Below, in pieces: positions 25,750 to 61,846 of a stretch of DNA of 64,000 nucleotides (positions are counted from its first letter, which is position 1; every line of letters begins with the position of its first letter). This DNA comes from an uncultured delta proteobacterium (GTDB lineage: Bacteria; Desulfobacterota; Binatia; Binatales; Binataceae). Where the stretch lies: NCBI GenBank assembly GCA_963808235.1, contig CAWEEQ010000004.1, forward strand, positions 2,624,001 to 2,688,000, read 5' to 3'. Made by a program: the position numbers and the translations under genes. Under the pieces are notes generated by a model that was not told the DNA's origin, made no database searches, and saw only the letters and a list, made by a program, of their open reading frames with translations.

Positions 25750-26400
25750 ATGAGGCAACGATTTTTGTTCGGTGCGTTGATGGGCGCGGTGCTTGCGCTG
25801 ATGTCCGCCGCGATTCCCGCGCGCGCCGAAATGAAGTTCGCGTACGTCGACGTGCAGCGTGCGCTCAATGAGTGCGACGCCGGCAAGAAGGCCAAGGCCG
25901 AGTTCCAGGGACGCGTCACCTCGCTCGAAGGGCGCCTGCAGCGGCAGCAAAACGAGGTCCAGGCCCTTAAGGACGAGATCGAGAAAAAGGGCATGCTGAT
26001 GACCGAGACCGAACGGCAGAGCAAGCAGGATCAGTACGTTGCCAAGCTCAAGAACTTCGAGCGTGACTACAAGGATTCGAAGGACGAACTGCAGGCCAAG
26101 GACAACGAGATGACCTCCAAGATCGTGCACGATCTCGCCCAGGTCATTCGAACTATCGGCGAGCGCGACAACTACACGATGGTCATGGAAAAAGGATCGA
26201 TACTGTGGGGCGCCCCCGGGATCGATATCACCGACCAGGTAATTCGCAGTTACAACGCGATGCACGTGCAGGTCGGCATGGTTGGAGAGACCGGTGGAGG
26301 CGGAGTATCGCGCACCAGTGCCAGCTCGGAACAGGCCGGCGCTCCGGTGCCGTCTGAGTTCGGCTCGTCCGCGGCCAAGCGCTCGACTATTTCGAAGTAA
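25750..26400 (+). CDS. skp: OmpH/Skp periplasmic chaperone
   Basis: AYVDVQ, coiled coil and DITDQVI; follows bamA. Confidence 0.9.
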   Translation: MRQRFLFGALMGAVLALMSAAIPARAEMKFAYVDVQRALNECDAGKKAKAEFQGRVTSLEGRLQRQQNEVQALKDEIEKKGMLMTETERQSKQDQYVAKLKNFERDYKDSKDELQAKDNEMTSKIVHDLAQVIRTIGERDNYTMVMEKGSILWGAPGIDITDQVIRSYNAMHVQVGMVGETGGGGVSRTSASSEQAGAPVPSEFGSSAAKRSTISK

Positions 26401-26410
26401 GCTACCCGCC

Positions 26411-26866
26411 ATGTCTGACGACGCAAAGGTCGCCGAGCTTTCGCGGGTGCTGGGGCTGCTGCCCCATCGCTATCCATTTCTGCTGGTCGATCGGATCCTG
26501 GAAATCGGCAAGGGCCGGGTGGTGACTATCAAGAACGTCACCTTCAACGAGCCGTTCTTCGCCGGCCACTTTCCGGAGCGCCCGGTGATGCCGGGGGTGC
26601 TGATCGTCGAGGCGCTGGCGCAGTCGGGCGCAATCCTGGCGCTGAGCGAATTGGGTGCGAGCGCGAGCCGTCTGTTCATGCTTACGGGGCTCGACAAGGT
26701 GCGTTTTCGGCGCCGTGTGATTCCCGGCGATCAGCTTCGGATGGAAGTAAAAATTCTCAAATTTCATCGCCCGCTATGGCGAATGCAGGGCGTGGCGCGG
26801 GTCGGCGACGAGTTGGCGGCGGAGGCGGAGCTGTCCGCGATGGAAGTCCAGGAGCAAGTACCATAG
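26411..26866 (+). CDS. fabZ: 3-hydroxyacyl-ACP dehydratase
   Basis: LPHRYPFLLVD and GHFPERPVMPGVL motifs. Confidence 0.95.
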   Translation: MSDDAKVAELSRVLGLLPHRYPFLLVDRILEIGKGRVVTIKNVTFNEPFFAGHFPERPVMPGVLIVEALAQSGAILALSELGASASRLFMLTGLDKVRFRRRVIPGDQLRMEVKILKFHRPLWRMQGVARVGDELAAEAELSAMEVQEQVP

Positions 26867-27654: not shown

Positions 27655-28450
27655 GCTCGGGCTCATCGCGGGCAACGGTGTCTTTCCGCTCGAAGTGGCG
27701 CGCGCGGCGCGCGGCCGCGGACTCAAAGTCATCGCAATCGCGCATCTCAACGAAAGCGATCGCGCGATCGACAAGATCGCCGACGAAGTCACGTGGATCA
27801 AGGTCGGCGAGCTGCAGAAAATTATCGACGTGTTCAAAAAAGCCGGCGTCGCGGAAGCCGCGATGGCGGGCGGCATCTCGCGCGCTCGGCTCAAAGATTC
27901 GTTCGCACCTGACGCGCGCGCGCTCGCGATGCTCGCGAGCATCGGACGCTTCAGCGACGACGCGGTGCTGCGCGGAGTAGCGCGCGAAGTCGAAGCGGAC
28001 GGAATCAGGATGATCGATCCAGTTCCGATGATTCCGCACTGGCTGGCGCCGGCCGGTCTCGCCGCCGGACCGGAGCCGACTCCCGCGCAACTGCGCGATC
28101 TGGATCTGGCATTCGCAGTCGCGCGGCAGTTGGGGCAATTCGACATCGGGCAGACCGTAGCGGTACGTGATGGAGCGGTCGCGGCGGTCGAAGCGCTCGA
28201 GGGCACCGACGCGGCGCTGCGTCGCGCAGCATCGATCGTCGGCGCGGGACTGGTCGTCGCAAAAGCGGCCAAGCCCGGTCAGGACATCCGCTTCGATCGT
28301 CCCGCGATTGGACCTGCGACCATCGAGTTGCTTGCCGAGATCGGCGCGGCGATGCTCGGCGTCGAGGCCGGCATCGCGCTCATCCTCGAGCACGATCGCA
28401 CGCTGGAGCTGGCGCGCTCGAAAAACGTGGGCGTGTACGGCCATGCGTGA
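27647..28450 (+). CDS. lpxI: UDP-2,3-diacylglucosamine diphosphatase LpxI (DUF1009)
   Basis: LGLIAGNG.FP, DIGQTV, EALEGTD and QDIRFD.P.IG motifs. GTG start 27647. Confidence 0.92.
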   Translation: MNKLGLIAGNGVFPLEVARAARGRGLKVIAIAHLNESDRAIDKIADEVTWIKVGELQKIIDVFKKAGVAEAAMAGGISRARLKDSFAPDARALAMLASIGRFSDDAVLRGVAREVEADGIRMIDPVPMIPHWLAPAGLAAGPEPTPAQLRDLDLAFAVARQLGQFDIGQTVAVRDGAVAAVEALEGTDAALRRAASIVGAGLVVAKAAKPGQDIRFDRPAIGPATIELLAEIGAAMLGVEAGIALILEHDRTLELARSKNVGVYGHA

Positions 28451-29393
28451 GCTGCGCGCAGCCGTAGTCGGAGCAGGCCGCCTGGGCACGCTTCACGCGC
28501 GCAAGTACGCCGCGGTTGAGGGCATCAAGCTCACGCACATAGTTGACCTCGACGAAGGACGCGCACAGAGTGTCGCGTCGGAACTCGGGGCGACGCCGCT
28601 CGCCGATTATCGGTTGCTCGCGGGCAAAGTCGATCTTGTTACGGTGGCGTCGCCGGGCGTGACGCATCATGAGATCGCGTCGGCGATGCTGAAATCCGGA
28701 ATCGACGTGCTGCTCGAGAAGCCGATGGCGGAGACGCTGGCGCAGGCCCGCGAACTCGCGAAATTGGCGTCAGCGAGCGGGCGTATTCTTCAAATCGGGC
28801 ATCTCGAACGATTCAATCCGGCAGTCGTTCATCTGCATTCGATCGTGAAAAATCCGCGCTTCGTCGAATGCCATCGGCTGGCGCCGTTCACCGAGCGCGG
28901 CACCGACGTGGATGTCGTGCTCGATCTGATGGTGCACGATCTCGACGTGATCATGTCGGTCGCGCCGTCGGAAGTCGCCTCGCTGGAAGCTATCGGGGTC
29001 GCGATTCTCACCGATCGAATCGATCTCGCCAACGCGCGCATCCGCTTCCAGAGCGGGCTTATCGCCAACCTGGTGACGAGCCGCGTTTCCGCGCGGCGCG
29101 AGCGCAAGATTCGCTTCTTCCAGCCCGACGCGTATATCTCGGTGGATTACGAAGCGCGCAGCATCCAGCTTTATCGCAAGACTCCCGCCGCGCGCGGCGC
29201 GAACTTCCCGACTATTTCCGCGGAGCAGATAGAACTCGGCGAGGGCGATCCGCTCGCCGACGAGGTAAATGCGTTCGTCGATGCGGTGCGGCGCCGCTCC
29301 AAGCCCGCAGTCAGCGCCGAGGACGGGCTGCGGGTGATGGAACTAAGCGAGCGAATCAAGGACGTAATGCTGACCGACGCGATCGCGACTTGA
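28443..29393 (+). CDS. Gfo/Idh/MocA oxidoreductase (GnnA-like UDP-GlcNAc 3-dehydrogenase)
   Basis: VVGAGRLG, EKP, GHLERFNP and DLMVHD motifs; located between lpxI and lpxB. Confidence 0.85.
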   Translation: MRELRAAVVGAGRLGTLHARKYAAVEGIKLTHIVDLDEGRAQSVASELGATPLADYRLLAGKVDLVTVASPGVTHHEIASAMLKSGIDVLLEKPMAETLAQARELAKLASASGRILQIGHLERFNPAVVHLHSIVKNPRFVECHRLAPFTERGTDVDVVLDLMVHDLDVIMSVAPSEVASLEAIGVAILTDRIDLANARIRFQSGLIANLVTSRVSARRERKIRFFQPDAYISVDYEARSIQLYRKTPAARGANFPTISAEQIELGEGDPLADEVNAFVDAVRRRSKPAVSAEDGLRVMELSERIKDVMLTDAIAT

Positions 29394-29442: not shown

Positions 29443-29889
29443 ATGCGTTCGACGAAATTCAAAATACTAGGCGGCGTCGTGCTCGCGGTGGGCGTGGGAT
29501 TCTTAGTCTTCACCTCGAGTTCAAACTGCCGGATGGTGACCGGCCGCGAGGCGGTCGACGTCAACGTATCCGCGATGCGTCCGGGAAGCGCGCAACTGTT
29601 TTGCTACACGGACGACGCGGGCAAAAGACTTCGCTTCGTGCTCGCGCGCGGCACCGACGGCAAAGTGCGCACCGTGTTCGACGCGTGCCGGCAATGCTTC
29701 ACGTTCCATCGCGGGTACCAGGTGGTGGGCGGCGAACTAATCTGCCGGGTATGCGGCAACCACTACCGCATCGATCGAATGGCCGAGGGCAAAGCGTCGT
29801 GCGTGCCGGCAAGCCTGCCGCATGAAGACGGGTCGGGGGTGGTGAGAATCAAGACCTCGGACTTGCAAGCCGGGCACGCGCTCTTCTAA
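29443..29889 (+). CDS. DUF2318-like membrane-anchored Cys-rich (putative Fe-S/metal) protein
   Basis: N-terminal TM; FDACRQC...YQVVGGELICRVCG...C. Confidence 0.8.
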   Translation: MRSTKFKILGGVVLAVGVGFLVFTSSSNCRMVTGREAVDVNVSAMRPGSAQLFCYTDDAGKRLRFVLARGTDGKVRTVFDACRQCFTFHRGYQVVGGELICRVCGNHYRIDRMAEGKASCVPASLPHEDGSGVVRIKTSDLQAGHALF

Positions 29890-29897
29890 GCAAATCC

Positions 29898-30509
29898 ATG
29901 AATCAAGGCCGCACCAGTCGTGTTCGCGGACGAGTCTTCTCGATCGTCGCCGTGGCGTTTCTGGTTGTTTTCTCGGCATGCAATCGGGAGGCGGCCGGCG
30001 ATTATCCGGCGGCGAACGGGAATAATTGCCTGCCCGATGTGAGTCTGATCGATCAGCACGGGAGTACTGTTTCGCTGGCCTCGCTGAAGGGCAAACCGGT
30101 GCTGATCGATTTCATCTACACGTCTTGCGCGTCGACCTGCCCGGTACTGACGGCGAAGATGGTGTCCGTGGCGCGCCAACTCGGCCCCGCTCTGGGAGCC
30201 AACGTGACGATTGTTTCGATTACGCTCGATCCCGAGCACGACGGTCCCGCGCAACTCGCGAGCTATGCGAAATCGCAAGGCGCCGACGCTCGTGGGTGGC
30301 TGTTTCTGACCGGCAAGCCCGCCCAAGTCGACCAGGTGCTCGCGCTGTTCAAGCTGCGGCGGATGCGCGAGAGCGACGGATCGATCACGCATTCGGTGTC
30401 GGCATTCCTGCTCGGTCCCGACGGCCACCAGGTTCGCCAGTACAATGCACTCAACGTCAACGCGAGCGCGGTAGTCGGCGATATCGATCGCTCGCGCGGC
30501 AAGAGTTAA
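29898..30509 (+). CDS. SCO family copper chaperone (lipoprotein)
   Basis: FIYTSCASTC (CxxxC), DPEHD and distal His; lipobox-like VFSAC. Confidence 0.9.
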   Translation: MNQGRTSRVRGRVFSIVAVAFLVVFSACNREAAGDYPAANGNNCLPDVSLIDQHGSTVSLASLKGKPVLIDFIYTSCASTCPVLTAKMVSVARQLGPALGANVTIVSITLDPEHDGPAQLASYAKSQGADARGWLFLTGKPAQVDQVLALFKLRRMRESDGSITHSVSAFLLGPDGHQVRQYNALNVNASAVVGDIDRSRGKS

Positions 30510-30512
30510 CCG

Positions 30513-30833
30513 ATGGCAACCTCGCTGGGAATCGATCGGCTCTCTATTCGTCAACTTGCCGGCGCGATGGCGCTGGTGATGATGATTGCGAGTCTGCCGG
30601 CGATCGGCGTGATCGTCATTGCCGATCGTGCGGGGCCAACTATATCGCTCGACATCTGTCATCCGCTGCAATCGCTCGACGCGTCACCAGGCGCCGTGTC
30701 GATCGCGCGCCCCGCGCAGCCGGAGATTGGCATCCAGATTCTTGCGCATGAGGCATTTGCCCAGTTTGTTCCCATTGCGAAGAGTAAATTCGCCGAGACT
30801 CCCGATCCGCCTCCGCCCAAGTCGCTCTGCTAG
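30513..30833 (+). CDS. Small membrane-targeted leader-like protein with C-terminal polyproline (CutF/CruR-like), copy 1
   Basis: Hydrophobic N-terminus, DICHP and C-terminal TPDPPPPKSLC; paralog of 33227-33541. Confidence 0.7.
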   Translation: MATSLGIDRLSIRQLAGAMALVMMIASLPAIGVIVIADRAGPTISLDICHPLQSLDASPGAVSIARPAQPEIGIQILAHEAFAQFVPIAKSKFAETPDPPPPKSLC

Positions 30834-30870
30834 ACGGACACCCTTACATTTTTTCGCAGATAGACGATTG

Positions 30871-30926
30871 CTCGCGGACCTCGACGGTTCGCGAGAGCAG
30901 GATACGGCCCGAGCTGGCCGCGGTGG
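30871..30926 (+). promoter_or_regulatory. Hairpins in the leader-to-OMP spacer 1
   Basis: Stem 30871-30880/30886-30895 and CGGCC/GGCCG 30905-30920, adjacent to a GGTGG SD. Confidence 0.5.
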
Positions 30927-30932
30927 ATGCTT

Positions 30933-31901
30933 ATGCGGAGGAATTTTGTTTTTGCGTTGATAGCCGTGCTGGTGTTGCGCGCGAGCGCGGCATCCGCGCA
31001 CGGAGTTGTGGGAGACTACGTGTTCCTTGAGCCGCTGGTGGCCGAGGATCCCACTCCCGCCAATGAGCTGGACATCCTGGCGCCATCGTGGGTCAGAAGC
31101 AGCGACGCTAATGACTACTCGATCGGATTCTCGGGCGAGAAAGTTCTTTGGATCGACGACAACTACATGCCGACATTCAGCCTGGCGGCCGGTACGGCGT
31201 GGCATCATGTTTCGCCGTTTAACATCTCTGTGCCGCGATCACGGGTCCTCGGAACGCTCGCCCCACTGCACACACCCAGCCACGAAGGAGTTGATAATCC
31301 GGAGGTAGCCGCAAAATGGGCCTTCTTCTATTCGCTGCCACATGAGTTTCTGACCTCGGTAGCATTGGTAGCCGACTTGCCGGTGGGCAACAGCGCGATC
31401 CGGAATCAGAGCCACACGAGCCTAGGTCCGGAACTGCTTATGGAAAAGGGTCTCGGCGACCTTCCCAATATGCCGGTGCTGAAATATCTTCGGCCGCTGG
31501 GACTCCAGGGCAACGTCGGTTATTTGCCGGCACTAGGCGGGCAGACCAGTCATGACCTGTTTGCCAATGCTGTGATTGAGTATTCGCTCCCGTACCTGAG
31601 CAACAATGTTCAGGATATTGGACTCAAGTGGCCGCTCCGCAACCTCTACCCGTTCGTGGAAATCAACTACGATCAACTGGTCAAAGGACCATCGGGCCAG
31701 ACATTCCCCTCGATCCTGGCGACCCCCGGCATCGCGTACGTCAGCTATCACTTCGAACTGAGCCTTGGCACTCAGTTCGCGCTCAACGACGCAGCCCGAC
31801 CCGGCACCCATGCCGCGGTGCTTGGTCTGCTGGACATTTTTTACGATTCGTTTTTCCCGAAATGGGGCAACTGGACTATCAATCGAGGACCCGGCCAATG
31901 A
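30933..31901 (+). CDS. Putative outer-membrane beta-barrel protein with mature N-terminal His
   Basis: Signal peptide ASA|HGVVGD, amphipathic beta-strand pattern, translationally coupled to copC. Confidence 0.65.
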   Translation: MRRNFVFALIAVLVLRASAASAHGVVGDYVFLEPLVAEDPTPANELDILAPSWVRSSDANDYSIGFSGEKVLWIDDNYMPTFSLAAGTAWHHVSPFNISVPRSRVLGTLAPLHTPSHEGVDNPEVAAKWAFFYSLPHEFLTSVALVADLPVGNSAIRNQSHTSLGPELLMEKGLGDLPNMPVLKYLRPLGLQGNVGYLPALGGQTSHDLFANAVIEYSLPYLSNNVQDIGLKWPLRNLYPFVEINYDQLVKGPSGQTFPSILATPGIAYVSYHFELSLGTQFALNDAARPGTHAAVLGLLDIFYDSFFPKWGNWTINRGPGQ

Positions 31902-32278
31902 AGACTTCGAAAATGTGCGTATCGGGTGCGGCGCTAGTTGCTATTGGGATGAGCTTTGCGATCGTGGCGTGGGCACATTCGTTTCCCGAGTCGGAGACTC
32001 CGTCGGCGGGACAAACGGTCGCATCCGCTCCCGCCGAGATAACGATCAACTTCGACGCTCCGATAGAGAAGCTGTTCGCCAAGCTGGAAGTGACCGGCGC
32101 CGACGGCAAGAACGAAGCGGCCGGCGCTCCGCAGATCAGCGACGACGGACGGCGGATGTCGGTGAAGGTCAACGCGCTCAAACCCGGCGACTACGCGGTC
32201 AAGTGGGCCGTCGTAGGTATCGATACGCATCATACGCAAGGCTCGTACACGTTCGCGATCGCAAGCGGAGGATCGTGA
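31898..32278 (+). CDS. copC: Periplasmic copper-binding protein CopC
   Basis: AWA|HSFP.SETP, YAVKW.VV..DTHH..GSY.F. Confidence 0.9.
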   Translation: MKTSKMCVSGAALVAIGMSFAIVAWAHSFPESETPSAGQTVASAPAEITINFDAPIEKLFAKLEVTGADGKNEAAGAPQISDDGRRMSVKVNALKPGDYAVKWAVVGIDTHHTQGSYTFAIASGGS

Positions 32279-33141
32279 TCGAACCAGCGGTAATTCTGGC
32301 CTGGCCATTGATCACGGCCCAGATCGTGATTTTTGGAACTGCGGCTTTTGCGCTGATGACATCACCTGGCGAGGTCCCGGGCGGCGATGGACCGACCCAC
32401 GCCCTCATCGTGCTATGGCGCGGACTGGCGCTTGCGATTCTTGCAATTTCGCCGGTGAGGTTCCTGGCCGTGGCGGCCGGCATGGCCGACACTACGTTGA
32501 AGGAAGCCATTCCATTTGTGCCGCAGATAATGCGCGAAACATTCGCCGGGCGGGTGTGGGCATGGCGACTCGGCGTCGACGCGATTCTGGCGATTGCGGC
32601 GTGGCTTCCAGCGCGTCGGAAGCTCCCGGTTCTGATCTCCGCGATTTCGTGCGCACTGCTCCTATTCCAGAGCGTCACGAGTCACGCGGTGGATAGCGGC
32701 GCGTACGCGATCGCAATTGTATTCATTCATCAGGTTGCCGCGGGCTTGTGGATCGGAGCGCTGGTAACCTTGCTGGTTGGAGCAACCTTCGGCCGCGCGG
32801 GCGCCGAGTGGCTCAAGTGGGCTTCGGGGCGAGTGTCAACGACTGCGGGATGGTCGGTAGCGGCGCTTGCCATCACCGGCGCGATCAGGGCGTGGTACGC
32901 GCTCGGACTGCGCTACGACCTGCTGGTGTATTCGCTCTACGGCCGCACCCTGCTCTGGAAGCTCGCGACCGCGGCAACGGTGATTCTGATCGGCGGATAC
33001 AACCGCTATCGCCTGGTGCCGGCAGTGGGCGAAGCGTCGGCGCGCACGACGCTGATTCATAATGTCACCCTGGAATGCCTGCTGCTGGCCGCGGTTCTCG
33101 GTTGGTCCGCGCTGCTGGCCAACACGCCGCCGCCGCATTGA
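32275..33141 (+). CDS. copD: Copper uptake membrane protein CopD
   Basis: TSHA, HQVAAGLWIG and YGRTLL.K...GGYNR motifs. GTG start overlaps the copC stop. Confidence 0.88.
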   Translation: MIEPAVILAWPLITAQIVIFGTAAFALMTSPGEVPGGDGPTHALIVLWRGLALAILAISPVRFLAVAAGMADTTLKEAIPFVPQIMRETFAGRVWAWRLGVDAILAIAAWLPARRKLPVLISAISCALLLFQSVTSHAVDSGAYAIAIVFIHQVAAGLWIGALVTLLVGATFGRAGAEWLKWASGRVSTTAGWSVAALAITGAIRAWYALGLRYDLLVYSLYGRTLLWKLATAATVILIGGYNRYRLVPAVGEASARTTLIHNVTLECLLLAAVLGWSALLANTPPPH

Positions 33142-33185
33142 CGAAAGTTTTGCGCCAGGCACCGCGATCGCGATGCCAATGGACA

Positions 33186-33214
33186 TTGAACTCGGGGGAC
33201 GGTTACTTTAGAAC
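33186..33214 (+). promoter_or_regulatory. Possible internal sigma70 promoter for the second module
   Basis: TTGAAC-N17-TAGAAC. Confidence 0.3.
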
Positions 33215-33226
33215 GGTAACTGCGCT

Positions 33227-33541
33227 ATGAGGCAATTCTTTTCAAAGGCGGACTTGCGGGACCTGAGTTTGGTCATGGCCATAGTGATGCTGTTGGCCAG
33301 CATCCCCGTGACTGAGGGGTTCGTCGTCGTCTCGAGGCCGAGCGGACCAGAATTGACCGCCAACATTTGCCAGCCGATTCAAATGTTCGACCGCGCGTCG
33401 AACACGTTGCTCGCGCGCCCCGCGGCCGTCGCGCCGGAGGTCGTTCTCTGCGATCTGGGCCCGGCCGCGATAAAGGAGACGGTGCGATTGGTCGACATCA
33501 AGATCGCTCCCGACACTCCGCCCCCAAAGAGCCTCGTCTAA
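33227..33541 (+). CDS. Small membrane-targeted leader-like protein with C-terminal polyproline, copy 2
   Basis: Hydrophobic N-terminus, NICQP and C-terminal APDTPPPKSLV. Confidence 0.7.
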   Translation: MRQFFSKADLRDLSLVMAIVMLLASIPVTEGFVVVSRPSGPELTANICQPIQMFDRASNTLLARPAAVAPEVVLCDLGPAAIKETVRLVDIKIAPDTPPPKSLV

Positions 33542-33572
33542 GAACTCTCGACAACGTTTCCTCTGATAGCCA

Positions 33573-33643
33573 CGCTGCGAACCTCGCGGCGGAAGGCGTT
33601 TTCTCTGAGGCAAGCGGCGCGCCGCAAGGTGTCCGCTGGGAGA
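33573..33643 (+). promoter_or_regulatory. Hairpins and anti-SD in the leader-to-OMP spacer 2
   Basis: Stem 33573-33591; GCAA-tetraloop hairpin 33613-33637 abutting a GGGAGA SD; TCTCT 33602-33606 is complementary to the SD. Confidence 0.5.
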
Positions 33644-33649
33644 TGTTCT

Positions 33650-34612
33650 ATGCGACGGAGTTATTGGGTTGCCCTGTTGGCAGGAGCGGCCGTTTTTCTG
33701 ATCGGCCTGACGCCCGATCTGAGCTGGGCCTGCGCTTGTGGATGTGGAGTCTACGAAGTCGGTACCGCAGCGTTGTTTCCGACCGACCACGGCGGAACGG
33801 TCTGGTTGGAGTATGACTACCAGGATCAGTACCTGAACTGGCATGCGACCCAAATCGCCTCAGGGGCCAAGAATGGCGACAAGAGAATCCGGACGCACTT
33901 TCTGACTCTCGGTGGTCAGTACATGTTCAACCGGAGTTGGGGAGTGCAGCTGGAGCTCCCGTACGCGTTTCGCTACTTCAAATCGACCAACGACGCCGGC
34001 CAGATTTTCGGGACCAACTTCAACACCATCGGGGACATCCGTATCCAAGGAATGTACACCGGGCTCTCGGAAGACATGTCGACGGGGCTGATGGCCGGCG
34101 CGAAGTTCCCGAGCGGATGGTGGACTTATCCGCATGCCGATCGAGACACCCAGATTGGCTCGGGGAGCACCGATCTACTGCTCTCGGCTTACCATCTCGG
34201 AACGTTTCCAACCCATGTTGGGAAGCTGCCGCTGACGTTCAGGGATCGCCCTTTCAACTGGTTTGTGCAGGCGTACGAGGATTTCCCGGTTTTCACGCAA
34301 GACCACTATACCCCGGGAAGGGAATTCGACTCGGCGCTGGGGGTCTACTACAACTTCGGCACGGTTGGCCCTTTGAAGGAACTCGCGCCGATGCTGACCT
34401 TTCTCGCTTCCGACCGCGCGCGTGACCAAGGCGCCTCTGCCAATCATGAGAACAGCGGCTATACGCGCTTTCTCATTGCTCCTGGAGCCGAGATCAAACT
34501 CGGAATCTTGCGACTATACGGAGACGTCGAGGTCCCGTTTTTTCAAAATATGATTGGTAATCAGATAACCGCGCCGCTCCTGTTCAAGACCATTGTAAGC
34601 TACGACTTCTAG
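33650..34612 (+). CDS. Putative outer-membrane beta-barrel transporter with mature N-terminal CACGC motif
   Basis: SWA|CACGC, GDI/PSG/GSGSTD pattern of MetA-pathway-like barrels, C-terminal YDF. Confidence 0.7.
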   Translation: MRRSYWVALLAGAAVFLIGLTPDLSWACACGCGVYEVGTAALFPTDHGGTVWLEYDYQDQYLNWHATQIASGAKNGDKRIRTHFLTLGGQYMFNRSWGVQLELPYAFRYFKSTNDAGQIFGTNFNTIGDIRIQGMYTGLSEDMSTGLMAGAKFPSGWWTYPHADRDTQIGSGSTDLLLSAYHLGTFPTHVGKLPLTFRDRPFNWFVQAYEDFPVFTQDHYTPGREFDSALGVYYNFGTVGPLKELAPMLTFLASDRARDQGASANHENSGYTRFLIAPGAEIKLGILRLYGDVEVPFFQNMIGNQITAPLLFKTIVSYDF

Positions 34613-34621
34613 GAGCATCAG

Positions 34622-35155
34622 ATGCGCTCAAAAATGTCCTGGTTCGCCGCAGTTGTTGCCGGGATCCTTGCGTTTGCCGGTTCCAGCACTTTCGCGCGCG
34701 CGGCCACCGATGTCGGTCAGCCCGCGCCCGCGCTGGTCGTGCCGGAACTGGACGGCCAGGCGTTTGACCTAAGTGCGATGCGCGGGAAGGTCGTAATCGT
34801 CAATTTCTGGGCCACCTGGTGTCCTCCCTGCCGCGAGGAGATGCCGGCCCTCGACAGTTTCTATCGGCGCTATCATGGTCAGGGGCTTGAAATGATCGGT
34901 CTCAGCTCCGACCGCCCGCACAATCGGTCCGACGTGACCAAGGTCATGCAATCATTCAGCTATCCGGCGGCGATGCTGGATGACGCCAAGGTCAACGAGT
35001 TCGGCACATCCAGCGTTCTGCCGATCACCGTCATCGTGGATAGAAATGGCGTGGTGCGCGCGAAGCTTACCCCCGATCAAACCCCGGTTACCGAGAAGAG
35101 TCTATCCGACGCGGTGCTACCGCTGCTGGCGCAAAGTTCGGCGGCGAATCCTTAG
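34622..35155 (+). CDS. TlpA-family thiol:disulfide oxidoreductase
   Basis: Signal peptide and NFWATWCPPC. Confidence 0.92.
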   Translation: MRSKMSWFAAVVAGILAFAGSSTFARAATDVGQPAPALVVPELDGQAFDLSAMRGKVVIVNFWATWCPPCREEMPALDSFYRRYHGQGLEMIGLSSDRPHNRSDVTKVMQSFSYPAAMLDDAKVNEFGTSSVLPITVIVDRNGVVRAKLTPDQTPVTEKSLSDAVLPLLAQSSAANP

Positions 35156-35162
35156 GCTCCCA

Positions 35163-35492
35163 ATGAAGACCTTCGCCTTACTCGCGATCATTCTGATGGC
35201 TGGATGCTCAGCCGCGAACACTCACACCGGTGATATGGATCCGAGGCTCGCTGACCTGGAAGCACAGAGGCAGACGATCGCCGGGCGCGAGAAAAAGTGC
35301 ATCGACGAAACGCAGGCGCGTAGCCATGATCAAGTGGAGCGCGATCGGGAAGTTTTGGAATGCCACGCGACGGCGCATCACGAAAACGCCGAAATCTCCG
35401 AGCAAGAGCGCAAAGAATATGAGCTTCAGGCGCAGGAGGAGAGGCATCGTGCTTCCCTTATGGCGATTCTTACGACCTCTCAGCCACGCTGA
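35163..35492 (+). CDS. Small helical lipoprotein, unknown function
   Basis: MKTFALLAIILMAG|C lipobox, two further Cys residues, coiled-coil character. Confidence 0.65.
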   Translation: MKTFALLAIILMAGCSAANTHTGDMDPRLADLEAQRQTIAGREKKCIDETQARSHDQVERDREVLECHATAHHENAEISEQERKEYELQAQEERHRASLMAILTTSQPR

Positions 35493-35497
35493 GGACT

Positions 35498-36139
35498 ATG
35501 AATGGAAGTAGAATGGATTCGAGTCGAACTGCAGCCGATCTTGTTCATATGACTTCAACAGTGTCGATCGCCAGTACTGATTCGGCGCGCATCCCACAGG
35601 GAGGGGGTCTCGGAATGCAGGTTCTGCGCGATCTCGGTGGGGTCGCGCTGCTCGCAATCGCGTCGCTCGCGGCTGGACTCGTGATTAACCGGTTTTCACA
35701 CGGCCCGCTTCCAGTCGTGTATCAGACGCCAGAGGAGCGGTTCGATGCCGAGCTGACGACTCTGGTCGCGGCGCCGCCGTTTAAGATCGCGCCCGCGGCA
35801 ACGGTCGGACTCGATGAATTCCGCAAGGCCGTCGAAAGCAAGAGTGCGCTCATCCTGGATGCGCGCCCGTCCGTGTTCTTCGAACAGGGACACGTCCCGG
35901 GGGCGCTCAATCTCGCGCGAGACGACTTCGCGCGCGACTATCGGAACTTGGCTGGCGTGCTGCAGGCCGCCCATGACAAACCGATCGTCGTGTATTGCTC
36001 CGGTGGCGACTGTCATGACAGCCGGCTGGTTGCGAACGCGCTGCTGAGTCTCGGCATCAACAATGTGACGATCTTCACCGGGGGTTGGAATGAGTGGTCG
36101 GCGGCCGGACTGCCGGCATCGACGGGGAGCGGACCATGA
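35498..36139 (+). CDS. Membrane-anchored rhodanese-like domain protein
   Basis: LDAR...F..GHVPGA, YCSGGDCHDS and GGWNEW motifs. A better start may be ATG 35615. Confidence 0.88.
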   Translation: MNGSRMDSSRTAADLVHMTSTVSIASTDSARIPQGGGLGMQVLRDLGGVALLAIASLAAGLVINRFSHGPLPVVYQTPEERFDAELTTLVAAPPFKIAPAATVGLDEFRKAVESKSALILDARPSVFFEQGHVPGALNLARDDFARDYRNLAGVLQAAHDKPIVVYCSGGDCHDSRLVANALLSLGINNVTIFTGGWNEWSAAGLPASTGSGP

Positions 36140-36624
36140 TGACGCTCGACAGCTCGCGCCGCTACGTCGTGTTGGCGATCAGCGCGGTGCTGGCCGGCGT
36201 GTTCATCTACGCGGGCATCGATAAGATTCGCGACCCGCTGCAGTTTGCGGATAGTATCGCGGCATTCGCGATCCTGCCGGTCGTGTTGATCAACCTGCCT
36301 GCGATCGGGTTGCCACCATTCGAGATAGGTTGCGCGCTCCTGTTGCTTCCGCCGGCGACCAGGCGGATCGGTGCGCTCGCCGTGGCTCTTCTGTCCGTCG
36401 TTTTCATGATCGCCCTGTCGTCCGCACTGCGTCGAGGTCTCACGCTCGACTGCGGATGTTTCGGGACCGGCGCGCCGTCGCGGCCGAGAATGTGGTTGGA
36501 GCTGGCGCTGGACGCAGGTTTGTTCGCGGGCGCGGTGTTCGTCTATTTGAGCTCGATCGCCCGCCTCTCCGCGCGGACGCCGTCTCTCTCTTCTTCACCG
36601 CAGCCTCAGGTTACAAACGAGTGA
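36136..36624 (+). CDS. MauE/DoxX-family redox membrane protein
   Basis: GVFIYAG..K and GLTLDCGCFG motifs. Confidence 0.88.
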   Translation: MMTLDSSRRYVVLAISAVLAGVFIYAGIDKIRDPLQFADSIAAFAILPVVLINLPAIGLPPFEIGCALLLLPPATRRIGALAVALLSVVFMIALSSALRRGLTLDCGCFGTGAPSRPRMWLELALDAGLFAGAVFVYLSSIARLSARTPSLSSSPQPQVTNE

Positions 36625-36654
36625 CCGGCGACAACAACAATCCAAATATCAGGA

Positions 36655-37266
36655 ATGGATGCAAATATGAGTATTCATCGTAGTCTCAGATCTCTAGCTA
36701 TCGTCGCAGCAATAACGTCGAGCCTGCTCGCGGTGACTGGATGCCATCGCGGCGCCGCCGCGGATGACGCGGCCGCCTCGAACTGCCTCACGGACACCAG
36801 CCTCATCGATCAGAATGGCGACAAGGTCTCGCTCGCGTCGCTCAAGGGCAAGCCGCTGGTGGTGGATTTCATCTATACGTCGTGTCCGGGGCCGTGCCTG
36901 ATGGAGACGGCGAAGCTGGCCAACGTCGCGCTTCGATTGGGAAGCGATCTCGGTTCAAAGGTCATGATCGTTTCGATCAGCGTCGATCCCGAGCATGACG
37001 GGCCCAAACAATTGCTCGCTTACTCGCGTCAGCAGGGCGCGGACGAGAAGGGCTGGTATTTCCTGACCGGAGGTCCCGGCGACGTCGACAAAGCGCTGGC
37101 GGGTTTCAAGCTCAGCAGGCAAATCGAACCCGATGGCTCGGTCGGGCACCTGGTCGATATGATGCTTATCGGACCCGACGGGCGGCTGGTTCATGAATAC
37201 AACGGCGAAGTCGTAAAAGCTCAGACTATCGTCGATGATGTCAGGAAGACCCTGAACAAGAGTTGA
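36655..37266 (+). CDS. SCO family copper chaperone (lipoprotein), second copy
   Basis: FIYTSCPGPC, DPEHD and GH; lipobox VTGC. Confidence 0.9.
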   Translation: MDANMSIHRSLRSLAIVAAITSSLLAVTGCHRGAAADDAAASNCLTDTSLIDQNGDKVSLASLKGKPLVVDFIYTSCPGPCLMETAKLANVALRLGSDLGSKVMIVSISVDPEHDGPKQLLAYSRQQGADEKGWYFLTGGPGDVDKALAGFKLSRQIEPDGSVGHLVDMMLIGPDGRLVHEYNGEVVKAQTIVDDVRKTLNKS

Positions 37267-37276
37267 AGGGTGCAGC

Positions 37277-37741
37277 ATGAGACGAGCAATCATTTTCGGA
37301 TCTTCGCTCGCGACGATTCTGGCGCTGGCATATTTGTGGCCGATGGTCGCTGGTTCGTCGGCGCAGAGCGGCGGTCCTCGCGGAGCGATGTGCGTCGCGG
37401 GCCATTGCTGCTGCTCGGGACGCGCAGAGGCGCAGACCGTCGCGGCTAACGAATCACAAGGCGCTCCGACGCTCGATCCAAAGCAGTTCGTGGGTCCGGT
37501 AAGAGAGGCGTACACATTTGCGGGGAAGGATCCCGCGCTGCTGGCGCAACTGCATTGCTACTGCGGATGCGACAAGGCGTTCGGTCATCAGAGCCTGCTC
37601 GATTGCTATCGCGGCACCCATGGAGCGACGTGCGAGGTCTGCACTCAGGAGGCGTTGCTGGCGAAGCGCATGTCGGAGCAAGGTTCGCCGGTCGATGAGA
37701 TACGCAACGCGATTCGCAGAAACTTCGCGCCCGACAATTGA
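37277..37741 (+). CDS. PCYCGC-motif (lipo)protein
   Basis: HCYCGC...H.SLLDCY...HGATCEVC; additional CVAGHCCC. Confidence 0.85.
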   Translation: MRRAIIFGSSLATILALAYLWPMVAGSSAQSGGPRGAMCVAGHCCCSGRAEAQTVAANESQGAPTLDPKQFVGPVREAYTFAGKDPALLAQLHCYCGCDKAFGHQSLLDCYRGTHGATCEVCTQEALLAKRMSEQGSPVDEIRNAIRRNFAPDN

Positions 37742-37795: not shown

Positions 37796-38983
37796 ATGCG
37801 ATTGAATGCCGAAGCACAGCGACCGCCAGGTGACCGCCTGAAGGAAACCGAACGCCGACGCCGAATCATGATCGTGGCGGGCGAGGCGTCGGGCGACCTT
37901 CATGGCGGCGACCTGGCGCGCGAGATCGCGGCGCGCAATCCGGGCTGCGAACTGTTCGGAATAGCCGGCGAGAAGATGCGCGCGGCGGGAGTGCGAGCGC
38001 TGGTCAGGATGGAGGATATCCACGGGCTCGGACTCTCCGAACTCGCCTCGACGATCGGACGCACGGTTTCCGCGTTTCGCGAGCTGCGGAGGATCATCAA
38101 GCGCGACAAGCCCGACCTCGTGATCCTGATCGATTACGCCGAATTCAACCTGATTCTCTCCGGCACCGCCCGGCGCGCGGGCGTGCCAGTGCTCTATTAC
38201 ATCACGCCGCAGGTGTGGGCGTGGCGGCGCGGGCGCGTCGACAAGCTGGTCGATCGCGCGGACCGTCTCGCGGTGGTGCTGCCATTCGAGAAGGAGCTGT
38301 TTCATCGCGCGGGCGAGCGGGTTTCATTCGTCGGGCATCCTTTGCTTGACCGCGTCGCGAAGGTGTCGAGTCGCGCGGAGACGTTGAAGCTTCACGGATT
38401 TTCACCAGGAGCACGACTGATCGCGATTCTGCCCGGGAGCCGCCGCGCGGAAGTTCGCTACCTGCTGAAGCCGATGGTGGAGGCGGCGCGGATCATTGCG
38501 CGCGACAATAACCTGGAAGTAGCGCTCGCGCTCGCGCCGACGCTGACCCGCGACGAACTTGCCGCGGTCGGGCGCGCAGATCTCGCCGGAGTGCGAATTG
38601 TCGAGAACGATACGTATAGTATTGTCGCCGCGAGCCAGCTTGCGCTGGTGGCGTCGGGGACTGCCACGCTCGAGACGGCGCTGCTCGGATGCCCCGAGGT
38701 GATCGCTTACAAAGTCTCGCCACTTACCTATATTCTAGGGCGGATGCTTGTGACCGGAGTGGATTTTATCGGGATGCCGAACATATTGGCGGGCCAGCAA
38801 ATTGTGCCGGAACTGATCCAGGGCGAGGTGACCGTGGAAAACCTCGTGCGGGCCGCCGAGCCGCTGCTCAGCGATACGATTCGCGCCGAAACAGTAACGG
38901 CGCTCGGCGCGCTGCGTGACAAGCTGGGCGCTCCGGGAGCCGCCGGCCGCGTCGCCGAAATTGCGCTGAGCATGATCGCATGA
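37796..38983 (+). CDS. lpxB: Lipid-A-disaccharide synthase
   Basis: AGEASGDLHG, PQVWAWR, LPFE, VGHP, LPGSR and SGTATLE motifs. Confidence 0.96.
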   Translation: MRLNAEAQRPPGDRLKETERRRRIMIVAGEASGDLHGGDLAREIAARNPGCELFGIAGEKMRAAGVRALVRMEDIHGLGLSELASTIGRTVSAFRELRRIIKRDKPDLVILIDYAEFNLILSGTARRAGVPVLYYITPQVWAWRRGRVDKLVDRADRLAVVLPFEKELFHRAGERVSFVGHPLLDRVAKVSSRAETLKLHGFSPGARLIAILPGSRRAEVRYLLKPMVEAARIIARDNNLEVALALAPTLTRDELAAVGRADLAGVRIVENDTYSIVAASQLALVASGTATLETALLGCPEVIAYKVSPLTYILGRMLVTGVDFIGMPNILAGQQIVPELIQGEVTVENLVRAAEPLLSDTIRAETVTALGALRDKLGAPGAAGRVAEIALSMIA

Positions 38984-57519: not shown

Positions 57520-58734
57520 TCACCGATCGCATTCGCCGCCGATCATGTTGACCATCCCGAAGGTCGTGATGATGTCGGGGATCATGTGGCCGATCAGCAT
57601 TTTGTGGAGCACGCCCATCCCGAGAAAACACGGCGGCCTGACTCGCACCCGGTACGGACGCCCGCTGCCGTCGCTCACGACGTAAAATCCCAACTCGCCG
57701 TTGGCGCCCTCGACCGCCTGGTAAATTTCGCCCGCGGGCACGTGGATGCCTTCCATGATGAGCTTGAAATGGTTCATCAGGCCTTCGATCGAGTTGTACA
57801 CTTTCTCTTTTTCGGGCAGCACGATTTTAGGATCGGTGATCGTCACTGGCCCCTCCGGAAGGGACTTAACCGCCTGCTCGATGATTCGCTTTGATTGATA
57901 CATCTCGCGGAAGCGCACGTTGAAGCGGTCGTAGTTGTCGCCTTGCTCGCCGACCGGGACTTCGAAATCCATTCGATCGTAGACGAGATATGGATGCGCC
58001 TTGCGGACGTCGTATGAGACCCCAGTCGCGCGCAGCAGCGGCCCGGTGAGGCCGTAGGAGATCGCGTCCCGCTTCGGCAGAATCCCGACACCCGACATCC
58101 GATCGATGAACACGCGATTGCGGCTCAGCAGTTTGTCGCAGTCGCTCAAGACCTGGTCGATCCTGACGAATGCGGCCTTCATCCGATCCGCAAAGTCGGC
58201 GGGAAGATCGTGAGTCATGCCGCCCACGCGGCACCATGTCACCGTCAGCCGCGCGCCGGTCACCGATTCGATCAAATCGTAAAGGAACTCGCGCGCCTCG
58301 AGCATGAACATAAACACGGTCGCTGCGCCGACCTCGTTGGAAGCCGCCCCAAGGCAGGTCAGATGGTCGGCGATGCGCGAGACCTCGCTCATGATCATGC
58401 GCACGTACTTGCATCGCTCAGTCGTCTCGACTCCGAGCAGGCGCTCGACGGCGAGCGCAAAGCCGACGTTGTTGATGCACGGCGACGCGTAGTTGAGCCG
58501 GTCGGTGTACGGGAAGCATTGGGTCCAGGTGCCCTGCTCGCACATCTTTTCGAATCCGCGATGCAGGTAGCCGACCTCGACGTCGCAATCGACGATCCGC
58601 TCGCCGTCGAGCTTCAGGTTGAACTTGATGGTGCCGTGGGACGCGGGATGCGACGGCCCCATCTGGAGTTCCATTATCTCGTCGGACGGATCCGACGGCA
58701 CGATTTTATCTTCCCAGCGCGCGGGTAGTGCCAT
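57520..58734 (-). CDS. nuoD: NADH-quinone oxidoreductase subunit D
   Basis: GPSHPASHG, GYLHRG.EK, DRLNY and GECDR motifs. Confidence 0.95.
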   Translation of the reverse strand: MALPARWEDKIVPSDPSDEIMELQMGPSHPASHGTIKFNLKLDGERIVDCDVEVGYLHRGFEKMCEQGTWTQCFPYTDRLNYASPCINNVGFALAVERLLGVETTERCKYVRMIMSEVSRIADHLTCLGAASNEVGAATVFMFMLEAREFLYDLIESVTGARLTVTWCRVGGMTHDLPADFADRMKAAFVRIDQVLSDCDKLLSRNRVFIDRMSGVGILPKRDAISYGLTGPLLRATGVSYDVRKAHPYLVYDRMDFEVPVGEQGDNYDRFNVRFREMYQSKRIIEQAVKSLPEGPVTITDPKIVLPEKEKVYNSIEGLMNHFKLIMEGIHVPAGEIYQAVEGANGELGFYVVSDGSGRPYRVRVRPPCFLGMGVLHKMLIGHMIPDIITTFGMVNMIGGECDR

Positions 58735-58756
58735 GATTTTTTTCACGTCTGCGTCT

Positions 58757-59257
58757 TCAGCGCGAGGAGCGGATCGGATGCACGATCGGATCGATCTCCT
58801 CAACGATGGGCTGGCGTTTGTTGTAGAGATAATCCTTGCGCAGCGGATGGCCCTCGAATGAATCGTACATCAGGATGCGGCGCAGGTCGGGATGGCCCTT
58901 GAAATTGATTCCGAACATGTCGAAGCATTCGCGCTCCAGCCAATCGGCCGCGCCCCAGATGCCGACGATGCTGTGCACCCACGGGTCGGCACCATCTACG
59001 CCTATTTTGACCCGGAGGCGATGACCCAGGGTCAGCGAATTCAGTTGGTAGACGACATCGAAGCGCGGATTGCGCTCGAGCCAGTCAACCGCTGTCAAGT
59101 CGGTCAGGAAGTTGAACTCGAAGCCGGGTTCGTCGCGGAGCGCGCGAAAAAAATCGTACCCATGCTCGCGGCCGATGGTGACAGTTTCCTCGCCGCGAGC
59201 GTCTTCGCTATCGAGGATCTCCGCGCCGAAGCGCTGCTTTAATTTTTCGATCAACAT
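58757..59257 (-). CDS. nuoC: NADH-quinone oxidoreductase subunit C
   Basis: W.ERE..DMFGI.F.GHPDLRRIL and GHPLRKD motifs. Confidence 0.95.
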   Translation of the reverse strand: MLIEKLKQRFGAEILDSEDARGEETVTIGREHGYDFFRALRDEPGFEFNFLTDLTAVDWLERNPRFDVVYQLNSLTLGHRLRVKIGVDGADPWVHSIVGIWGAADWLERECFDMFGINFKGHPDLRRILMYDSFEGHPLRKDYLYNKRQPIVEEIDPIVHPIRSSR

Positions 59258-59263
59258 TGAGAA

Positions 59264-59617
59264 TCAATCCCAATCCAGCGCGCCGCGCTGCCACGCGTAA
59301 ACGAGACCCACCACAAGTATCGAGATGAAAATCAGCGCCTCGACGAAACCAAACATCCCAAGATGCCGCAGCTCGACCGCCCACGGATAGAGAAAAATCA
59401 CTTCCACATCGAAGAGCAGGAACAGGATCGCGGTCAGGTAAAATCGCACCGTAAAGCGACCCCATGCCGAACCGCTCGGCGGGTTGCCGCATTCGAACGC
59501 CTCTCCCTTCACCTGGCTCGGTCGAGAGGGGCCGACAAGCATGTTGATGGTGCACATCACGCCGACAATCACGGCGGCGAGGACGATCGTCACAGCGATG
59601 GGGAACCAGGTTGCCAT
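59264..59617 (-). CDS. nuoA: NADH-quinone oxidoreductase subunit A
   Basis: FECG, FDVE..FLYPWA and GALDW motifs. Confidence 0.95.
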   Translation of the reverse strand: MATWFPIAVTIVLAAVIVGVMCTINMLVGPSRPSQVKGEAFECGNPPSGSAWGRFTVRFYLTAILFLLFDVEVIFLYPWAVELRHLGMFGFVEALIFISILVVGLVYAWQRGALDWD

Positions 59618-61821: not shown

Positions 61822-61846
61822 TGTGGTTATCCTCACTCAGCCTTGC

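Follow-up and report, generated by a model that had tools for sequence, protein, structure and literature searches.

The stretch analysed here (the window; 64,000 nucleotides of contig CAWEEQ010000004.1) comes from a member of the Binataceae, which are abundant uncultured soil bacteria. A block of 14 open reading frames (ORFs), all on the + strand, occupies positions 29443-37741 of the window between a gene for a Gfo/Idh/MocA oxidoreductase and lpxB, with gaps of -4 to +108 nt between the ORFs. Its products include CopC, CopD, two SCO proteins, a TlpA/ResA-like thioredoxin, two exported proteins referred to here as Cys-OMP and His-OMP (OMP, outer-membrane protein), and two small proteins, SPa and SPb. 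The block is considered to be one variant of a conserved copper-handling envelope operon of the Binataceae, in which the small proteins would act in the manner of CutF and CruR; taken together with the workings proposed below, this reading is about evenly poised between right and wrong. The features are as follows.

28167-29393, + strand: Gfo/Idh/MocA oxidoreductase ("gnnA-like"), the upstream flank; PF01408, 93 bits; true start probably near 28452.
29443-29889, + strand: DUF2318/FtrD-like protein with a single transmembrane (TM) segment and a Cys-rich domain (two CxxC and one Cys); PF10080, E 3.5e-18, 66 bits.
29898-30509, + strand: SCO1/SenC protein a, with lipobox, CxxxC and His; PF02630, 99 bits.
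30513-30833, + strand: SPa, 106 aa, candidate arrest-peptide upstream ORF; no family.
30834-30932, no strand: spacer between SPa and His-OMP, 99 nt, containing a hairpin.
30933-31901, + strand: His-OMP, exported β-rich protein; no Pfam domain.
31898-32278, + strand: CopC; PF04234, E 2.5e-21, 77 bits.
32275-33141, + strand: CopD, inner membrane; PF05425, 50 bits (cut-off 32).
33227-33541, + strand: SPb, 104 aa, candidate arrest-peptide upstream ORF; no family.
33542-33649, no strand: spacer between SPb and Cys-OMP, 108 nt, with two hairpins and GGGAG 7 nt 5' of the conserved ATG.
33650-34612, + strand: Cys-OMP, predicted 12-strand COG4313/FapF-like barrel (AlphaFold2 and Foldseek).
34622-35155, + strand: TlpA/ResA-like thioredoxin, exported, with WCPPC; AhpC-TSA 82 bits, Redoxin 76 bits.
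35163-35492, + strand: charged small lipoprotein (LMAGC), likely to be helical; no family.
35498-36139, + strand: rhodanese, membrane-anchored, active-site loop CSGGDC; PF00581, 74 bits.
36136-36624, + strand: MauE/DoxX-type polytopic membrane protein; PF07291, 99 bits.
36655-37266, + strand: SCO1/SenC protein b, with lipobox, CxxxC and His; PF02630, 82 bits.
37277-37741, + strand: PCYCGC/CYCXC protein, exported, with HCYCGCD and an N-terminal HCCC; NF041379, 114 bits (cut-off 90); PF13798, 47 bits.
37796-38983, + strand: LpxB, the downstream flank, followed by MsbA, KdtA and LpxK; TIGR00215, 303 bits.

The order of the + strand genes in the window is that for LolC/D-like ATP-binding cassette (ABC) proteins, BamA, Skp, FabZ, LpxA, LpxI, the Gfo/Idh/MocA protein, the block, LpxB, MsbA, KdtA, and LpxK. 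An earlier note on this DNA had described a co-oriented block of 14 genes at this position, and all 14 ORFs lie on the + strand at the coordinates given there. Its family names agree with the Pfam and NCBIfam matches. The curated cut-off of a family was reached by nine of the 14 products; the two small proteins, the two OMPs, and the lipoprotein had no family even when unassigned ORFs were rechecked down to E ≤ 10. The products also look exported, as the note had said of nearly all of them: judged by eye from the translations, every one has a hydrophobic segment at its N-terminus, a lipobox, or multiple TM segments. Pfam found neither a P-type Cu ATPase nor a multicopper oxidase in the block, in agreement with the note, and the 46 further window ORFs scanned for domains gave none either; the sole P-type ATPase among these adjoins KdpC. 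CopA/PcoA multicopper oxidase and CopB/PcoB domains were likewise absent from the 14 block proteins and these 46 ORFs, so the block lacks the make-up of a copABCD/pco operon. The name "gnnA-like" holds as far as the Gfo/Idh/MocA family is concerned, but not for UDP-GlcNAc 3-dehydrogenase, whose model NF040723 gave 181 bits against a cut-off of 450. A scan for promoters and terminators gave sites no more frequent than in shuffled sequences.

Relatives were collected by one genome scan seeded with the Cys-OMP alignment, which gave at least 599 candidate stretches; 581 were confirmed and the best 80 were kept. The set thus consists of Cys-OMP-bearing loci, and block-bearing or block-free sites without Cys-OMP lie outside it. 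Window proteins were mapped onto the relatives by tblastn, and the counts refer to 65 loci (L001-L065). A co-oriented version is present at the site between the gnnA-like gene and lpxB in 18 of the 65, where the two genes are 2.6-12.2 kb apart and enclose 4-15 mapped genes. Because these 18 loci keep a co-oriented version between the same flanking genes, the arrangement is not due to chance. The position is kept even where the flanking genes are merely 65-70% identical to those of the window, and the smallest version at this site (L038) consists of DUF2318, SP, Cys-OMP, and TlpA.

The genes differ in how often they recur. TlpA is encoded in 63 of the 65 loci, directly 3' of Cys-OMP in 46, and an SP-like ORF, counted by a feature filter upstream of the Cys-OMP gene, in 58. 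A SCO gene of either kind occurs in 54 loci, DUF2318 in 41, the small lipoprotein in 38, and CYCXC in 31. Rhodanese and MauE are found together in 43 loci and apart in one, and His-OMP, CopC, and CopD occur in 13, invariably as a trio. The conserved core is the small protein, Cys-OMP, and TlpA. Linkage of these gene families is thus conserved among the relatives.

The same comparison changes the view of the block as an island that had inserted into the lipid A operon. The guanine-plus-cytosine content of the block equals that of its flanks, and the position between gnnA and lpxB holds in diverged relatives while the content varies. These two features rule out a recent horizontal island: the block is an old part of the operon, and a plastic one, and the version lodged between the gnnA-like gene and lpxB is of old standing in the family. 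The gene order in the window is a rearranged variant of the commonest order: His-OMP, CopC, and CopD lie behind SPa, but behind MauE in the closest relatives (L001 and L024). A stretch of about 40 nt at the His-OMP gene start (window 30906-30947) can be aligned in L001 with either OMP gene start, which is suggestive of a recombination joint. At least two genomes carry two modules (L003 and L021 on one contig; L005 and L006 in one assembly), and the module may be mobile within or between genomes. Extra modules outside the lpx cluster were observed beside a TrwB-type coupling protein (L003:19106-20929), beside IstB and a Mu-type transposase (L005:6747-9018), beside a resolvase/recombinase (L006:4530-6218), and beside an integrase and a DDE transposase (L008:5952-9114).

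Cys-OMP probably begins at ATG 33650, a start codon conserved in the alignment of 29 intergenic regions. Its homologs number at least 2603 proteins at E ≤ 1e-3; none has a Pfam domain, and every name given in the sources is "hypothetical protein". Directly after the signal-peptide-like segment lies ACACGC (A34 C35 A36 C37 G38 C39), which is invariant in 25 of 25 aligned sequences; the window protein has CACGCG. The C-terminus, SYDF, is typical of OMPs. The AlphaFold2 (AF2) model had a predicted local distance difference test (pLDDT) value of 75.1 and a predicted template modelling score (pTM) of 0.72, with low confidence in the N-terminal segment. Its best Foldseek matches were FapF (5o67) and the COG4313 channel Pput2725 (4rl8), with E values of about 1e-8 and template modelling (TM) scores of 0.56-0.70; for 4rl8_C, E was 3.7e-8 and TMt was 0.69. 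On this model, Cys-OMP is predicted to be an outer-membrane 12-strand barrel of the COG4313/FapF-like kind, and the model has the structural features of COG4313/PF13557. At the sequence level, the hidden Markov model (HMM) of PF13557 matched neither window OMP (E ≤ 10); weak matches were obtained for the Cys-OMP homologs in L076, L078, and L080 (E 7e-5 to 3e-4). A sequence profile search of the PDB gave nothing meaningful for either OMP. Pput2725, a COG4313 protein, is reported to be a 12-strand barrel in which the lumen is occluded by an N-terminal segment (PMC4493636).

The likely start of His-OMP (ATG 30933) agrees with a 100% identical database entry of 322 aa. The 391 homologs of this protein have no Pfam domain. 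For the window protein and for its counterparts in 13 of 13 related loci, cleavage after AxA is predicted to leave HGVVGDY as the mature N-terminus. The nearest named Atlas cluster (score 0.95) has PF13557 in 21% of its members, which is a lead only, and homology between Cys-OMP and His-OMP was not detected (BLASTP E 0.69; hhalign probability 0.7%). The label of outer-membrane protein given to both is supported for Cys-OMP by its predicted fold, but for His-OMP by weak leads only.

The two genes that follow His-OMP belong to known copper families. CopC has the domain and, after predicted cleavage behind AWA to give HSFP, His as its first residue; it has D-T-H-H near the C-terminus and no Met-rich loop, and its score with NF033814 is 77 bits, under the cut-off of 95. 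In the published classification of CopC, an N-terminal His without a Met-rich loop marks the Cu(II)-only type that is usually paired with CopD. The CopC stop overlaps the CopD start. CopD belongs to PF05425, and its match to NF033808 spans positions 9-294 of 295 with 111 bits, under the cut-off of 195. The homologs of CopC and CopD in E. coli are reported to be linked to copper uptake (PMC8689200, PMC11923076).

SCO proteins a and b are 52% identical; both match the family HMM and have CxxxC and a distal His, in the motifs CASTC/THS and CPGPC/GHL. The thioredoxin remained under the subfamily cut-offs (ResA subfamily, 95 bits against 170; TlpA equivalog NF047696, 74 bits against 230). According to PMC7558416, TlpA reduces the cysteines of cytochrome oxidase subunit II before Sco1 and PCuAC deliver copper; reduction of ScoI by TlpA is given there in the title of a reference.

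Copper families recur around the relatives of the block. The neighbours were scanned with Pfam in two sets: scan A covered 137 ORFs from 16 loci, mostly from other phyla, and scan B covered 110 of 149 candidate ORFs from 20 Binataceae modules outside the lpx cluster. In scan A, a true DUF2946 ORF (E 2e-9; L067) and a cupredoxin gene (L071) lie upstream of Cys-OMP homologs, CusF-SCO fusions were found in L073 and L075 and SCO in L077, and a TlpA-like gene is directly 3' of Cys-OMP in L068, L070, and L071. In scan B, a COX2-domain protein of about 195 aa is encoded in six of the 20 modules and YHS-domain proteins in three; L058 adjoins COX1 and COX3, and L028 adjoins a multicopper oxidase. The assignment to copper thus has the recurrence of copper-family neighbours across unrelated phyla on its side, but this is association only. 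The proposal of a complete envelope-spanning pipeline goes further than the gene content, since the window holds neither PCuAC nor a cuproenzyme.

The COX2-domain proteins (L008:12649-13251, L011:13510-14112, L052:12225-12806, L058:14143-14724, L059:13782-14381, and L062:13467-14072) read C-D-S-G-C-G-C-x3-C-M at the position expected for CuA, and the loop, which is odd for a CuA site, is invariant as C-D-x-G-C-G-C-x3-C-M. CxC motifs recur in this loop, in Cys-OMP (CACGC), and in the CYCXC protein (CYCGC). No gene for a COX2-like protein with the Cys-rich loop was found in the window.

The same neighbourhoods bear on the purpose for which copper would be handled. It is rather unlikely that the block serves copper tolerance or buffering, with the Cys/His-rich exported proteins sequestering or re-routing periplasmic copper and the SPs switching on at high copper, as CutF does for CutO. 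CutF-type sensors are reported to induce a detoxifying enzyme (10.1101/2022.11.11.516240), and CopC and CopD are stated to have been first described in resistance operons (PMC7558416). Besides the multicopper oxidase adjoining L028, homologs of Cys-OMP have CusF-SCO fusions and a gene of the HlyD/CusB type in their neighbourhood (L067, L073, and L075), and there are several module copies per genome, some beside mobile genes (L003, L005, L006, and L008), as with resistance determinants. However, the window block has no efflux ATPase, RND pump (resistance-nodulation-division), CopA-type oxidase, or CopB. Throughout the family, the lpx-site copy is stable and has no mobile genes beside it, and the genes for COX2-domain proteins and cytochrome oxidase that adjoin related modules suggest a supply of cofactor.

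SPa and SPb are paralogous (37% identity, E 6e-17). They had been called leaders; this label is apt in spirit, but they are conserved ORFs of 104-106 aa and not short leader peptides. In SPa, a hydrophobic segment at the N-terminus is accompanied by ICHPLQ, and PPPPK stands five residues ahead of the stop; SPb has Cys48, PPP at 98-100, K101, and its stop after residue 104. Invariant among the 57 sequences aligned are the initiator Met, one Cys, and three Pro in succession. The Cys sits in xIC[HQ]PxQ and the terminal motif is (T/P)PPP(K/R/E), while the stretch between them is variable. The spacing from Cys to PPP is 50 in most of the 58 SP loci; in the other rows it is 49-52, or the script took a nearer non-homologous Cys. 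PPP lies 5-11 residues from the C-terminus, and the distance from the SP stop to the OMP start is about 100 nt. A profile search of 1.84 billion representatives gave 193 clusters at E ≤ 1e-3, nearly all of 95-110 aa and matched to the end. It should be mentioned that a near-invariant A-R-P about 15 residues after the Cys (63-65 in SPb) recalls the RAPP/RAGP arrest motifs, but it is in the middle of the protein.

Two characterized systems serve for comparison. CruR of Bordetella pertussis (bp2923, DUF2946) is described as having CXXC, 45 residues, and RAPP three residues before its end. Through the nascent chain it governs Rho-dependent termination in front of a gene for a TonB-dependent transporter, and copper control is lost when the Cys residues, RAPP, or the spacing is changed (PMC9426467). 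CutF of the Rhodobacter capsulatus cutFOG operon is reported to have a signal peptide, C69xxxC73, and a C-terminal ...GPPPRL, and to require the signal peptide, CxxxC, and PPP; its copper-dependent stalling at PPP melts a stem-loop over the next ribosome-binding site (RBS) (10.1101/2022.11.11.516240; 10.1101/2025.02.05.636593). The filters used to define CutF-like ORFs are a length of fewer than 150 aa, a PP motif among the final 15 residues, a signal at the N-terminus, and, less than 1000 nt away, a neighbour on the same strand (10.1101/2022.11.11.516240). SPa and SPb fall within this operational definition of Ozturk et al.: PPPP or PPP is 5-8 residues from their end, and the signal, judged by eye, is a hydrophobic N-terminal stretch behind basic residues. 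They also have a fixed spacing between sensor and arrest motif. By analogy, a working like that of CutF and CruR seems to be the best reading of both ORFs. The SP family may already belong to one of the 29 clusters in the CutF paper.

The position 5' of Cys-OMP is filled by other small ORFs elsewhere. In addition to the DUF2946 ORF of L067, a Verrucomicrobial type of about 126 aa is found there, with HW..LQTVAWTTML, FDGxHxCPLC, KKSEKK, and KPPxPPPR and no Pfam family. ORFs of this type were observed at L069:6162-6542, L072:5094-5477, L073:9455-9835, L074:1997-2377, L075:3079-3507, L076:9490-9870, L077:9339-9755, L078:9465-9845, and L079:9475-9855; the nine CPLC-ORF loci are labelled mostly Verrucomicrobia, plus one Candidatus Acidiferrales and two Bifidobacteriaceae. 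Homology of the SPs to DUF2946 or to the Verrucomicrobial ORFs was considered and rejected on the basis of the HMM searches and hhalign. The nearest named Atlas clusters of the SPs, "DUF2946 domain-containing" (PF20558) and CzcI, share few features with them (84 and 74) and are a weak lead.

SPa and SPb might also be ordinary stable envelope proteins and no cis-acting sensors, for example partners anchored in the inner membrane that reach the OMP by their proline-rich end; this seems as improbable as the tolerance role above. The SPs are conserved as proteins along their whole length, they show no homology to DUF2946, and a conserved RNA switch was not found. An N-terminal anchor with a proline-rich stretch is, moreover, the layout of TonB-type proteins too. 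On the other hand, the best-conserved features are those of arrest peptides, namely PPP beside the stop and the fixed distance of 50 residues from the Cys, while the stretch between them varies. Furthermore, the SPs have no C-terminal domain, and the same position 5' of Cys-OMP holds DUF2946 (L067) or the unrelated CPLC...PPxPPPR ORF (Verrucomicrobia).

The remaining genes of the block are related to thiol redox chemistry. Rhodanese and MauE are encoded as an overlapping pair (35498-36624), and the rhodanese weakly matches TsoB, a rhodanese/DsbD-fusion selenoprotein (E 1.9e-11), which hints at a transmembrane thiol-electron module. The CYCXC family is described as including members that contain selenocysteine (Sec; UxxC). 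A true mau cluster was rejected: the MauE HMM gave 99 bits, but mauA/mauB and the other mau structural genes are absent from the window. The thioredoxin matches MauD weakly (E 4e-4).

From these genes a non-copper function could be proposed, in which the core (Cys-OMP, TlpA, rhodanese, MauE/DoxX, CYCXC, and DUF2318) handles another thiophilic species, such as thiosulfate, sulfane sulfur, or a different soft metal or metalloid, or acts in general thiol-redox defence of the envelope, with CopCD and SCO added on. No copper role is established for rhodanese or MauE/DoxX, the proteins of the rhodanese and CYCXC genes match NCBIfam selenoprotein models built on redox-active Sec/Cys motifs, DUF2318 with thioredoxins is found in an iron-uptake cluster, and SCO, CopC, and CopD are all missing from the minimal locus L038; a single SP Cys would suit redox sensing, and CutF-like sensors are reported not to be all copper-specific (10.1101/2022.11.11.516240). 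However, SCO is present in 54 of the 65 loci and, apart from one NicO and one ZIP in scans A and B, the metal-annotated neighbours are copper families (SCO, CusF, cupredoxin, DUF2946, COX2, multicopper oxidase, YHS, and CopCD). This is the least probable of the alternatives.

If the block is a copper-handling operon, its workings can be proposed as follows. The two exported β-rich proteins would be entry points in the outer membrane. The Cys3 tail (CxCxC) of Cys-OMP would be suited to Cu(I), and the N-terminal His of His-OMP to Cu(II), which might pass from His-OMP to CopC and on to CopD as the inner-membrane importer. The TlpA-like thioredoxin may keep the Cys ligands reduced in Cys-OMP, both SCO proteins, the CYCXC protein, and the DUF2318 protein. 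The membrane pair of rhodanese and MauE would supply the reducing power, a role proposed because the block encodes no CcdA/DsbD. The SCO proteins would then hand copper to CuA-type or other cuproproteins encoded elsewhere. During its synthesis the SP nascent chain would be exported, so that the invariant Cys meets periplasmic copper or oxidant, and would act in cis. The ribosome would sit on PPP(P)K, 50 residues behind the Cys, and how long it pauses would determine the expression level of the channel gene downstream.

A more specific form of this proposal concerns the core trio. It might constitute a redox-gated Cu(I) gate of the outer membrane, with a CxCxC tail reduced by the thioredoxin, metered by polyproline arrest peptides of a new kind that sense copper or thiol oxidation through a single Cys 50 residues from the stall site. 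The three unrelated families of small ORFs (SP, Verrucomicrobial CPLC...PPxPPPR, and DUF2946) would then be convergent. This form is tentative and seems clearly less probable than the general reading.

Several observations weigh against the copper operon with arrest-peptide control. As for the SPs, neither CxxC nor CxxxC is present and one invariant Cys is kept. DUF2946 (PF11162) did not match the SPs at E ≤ 10, and none of 38 family representatives matched at E ≤ 0.1, so that SPa and SPb are not members of DUF2946 by sequence. The hhalign probabilities among the SP, DUF2946, and Verrucomicrobial ORFs were 0.5%, 0.1%, and 7%, the value of 0.1% being that of the SP profile with the L067 ORF. 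In addition, an SP precedes His-OMP in only two of 14 cases (the window and L034). As for the RNA, the spacer folds were no more stable than shuffles (z -1.06 for SPa and -1.10 for SPb), and RNAalifold on 29 spacers gave 0 pairs, although indels in the MAFFT alignment may hide structure. Pairing of the Shine-Dalgarno (SD) sequence with the SP 3' end plus 14 nt past the stop averaged 0.22 against 0.21 with a shuffled spacer (Wilcoxon p 0.6, n=59). A rut-like C-rich tract was not found after the SP stop, where the 60-nt value of 0.06 was within background. As for transport, the AF2 model of His-OMP was poor (pLDDT 43.5) and its C-terminus is not aromatic. COG4313 channels are implicated in the uptake of hydrophobic molecules, not ions (PMC4493636), and a role of CopD in uptake is described as debated (PMC7558416). 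The sole studied DUF2318 protein, FetA, belongs to an iron-uptake cluster.

An excess of C over G was confined to -40..+20 around the SP stop, including the proline codons. An anti-Shine-Dalgarno arrangement was also considered: the SD was often paired with the proline codons, but the shuffled-spacer control was equal, because CCN codons are inherently complementary, and the idea was rejected.

Copper passage across the outer membrane is known for few bacteria. Searches of the literature on DUF2946, DUF2318, PCYCGC/CYCXC, copper in Binatota, COG4313, and CopC/CopD uptake yielded no account of the module, of either OMP family, or of the SP family. Operons for copper homeostasis that combine CopCD, SCO, and TlpA with a nascent-chain sensor are known as a kind; within that kind, the channels, the family of sensors, and the way the parts are wired would be novel variants. 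If the copper reading is correct, it would define a large unannotated family of copper channels, with at least 2603 proteins and at least 581 loci in species-representative genomes, and would give working hypotheses for DUF2318, PCYCGC/CYCXC, MauE with rhodanese, and the small proteins. Metal sensing by stalled exported nascent chains would extend to this lineage and to a family beyond the reach of homology searches. Genes for copper membrane monooxygenases are reported in nine of 48 Binatales genomes (PMC8262859), and copper supply in the Binataceae is therefore of ecological weight.

Other parts of the window can be mentioned briefly. The skp gene directly precedes fabZ (25750-26866), and lpxD, which is usual between these two genes, was not seen in the 46 ORFs that were scanned in the rest of the window. 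KdpB- and KdpC-like genes adjoin a sigma-54 activator at 59729-63907, and NADH dehydrogenase subunit genes are at 57520-59617; both regions are unrelated to the block.

Comparison with known systems places the parts of the block as follows. The Campylobacter fetMP-fetABCDEF cluster resembles it in combining a Cys-rich periplasmic DUF2318 domain with periplasmic thioredoxins in a metal-uptake cluster. However, that system is for iron, FetA carries a YHS domain and, by prediction, 8 TM segments, against a single TM segment in the window protein, and the block has no FTR1/P19 or ABC transporter. CopC and CopD resemble YobA-YebZ of the E. coli AZY operon and YcnJ in that a CopC with N-terminal His and without a Met-rich loop is followed by an overlapping CopD. 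They differ in that the pair always follows an exported β-rich protein with N-terminal His (13 of 13 loci), and YebY/DUF2511, CopA, and CopB are absent here.

With the TlpA-ScoI-CoxB system of Bradyrhizobium, the block shares a periplasmic TlpA-like thioredoxin and SCO, and related modules have COX2-domain genes. Here PCuAC is lacking, and the thioredoxin stays short of the cut-off for the TlpA equivalog (74 of 230 bits). Its gene is tied to that of Cys-OMP rather than to SCO (TlpA in 63 of 65 loci, SCO in 54 of 65), and the COX2-like proteins of related modules have a Cys-rich loop at the CuA position. Cys-OMP, for its part, is predicted to be a 12-strand barrel of the same size as the COG4313/PF13557 proteins (Pput2725, SphA, and TcpY) and FapF. 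Of the known members, those of COG4313 are implicated in taking up hydrophobic molecules and FapF secretes amyloid subunits, whereas CxCxC after the signal peptide and the copper neighbourhood are particular to the Cys-OMP family.

The small proteins differ from CutF and CruR in having no detectable sequence homology to them and one conserved Cys instead of two. Neither an RBS-shielding stem-loop nor a rut site could be demonstrated in the SP spacers, and the downstream gene here encodes a COG4313-like barrel, not a TonB-dependent transporter or oxidase. The likeness lies in the general design: an ORF of fewer than 150 aa with an N-terminal export signal stands at the head of a copper-related gene, and a spacer of about 100 nt precedes the regulated gene, with DUF2946 in the same position in L067. 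In addition, the Cys motif is 41-50 residues before a C-terminal proline motif, as between C48 and PPPK of SPb, which are 49 residues apart.

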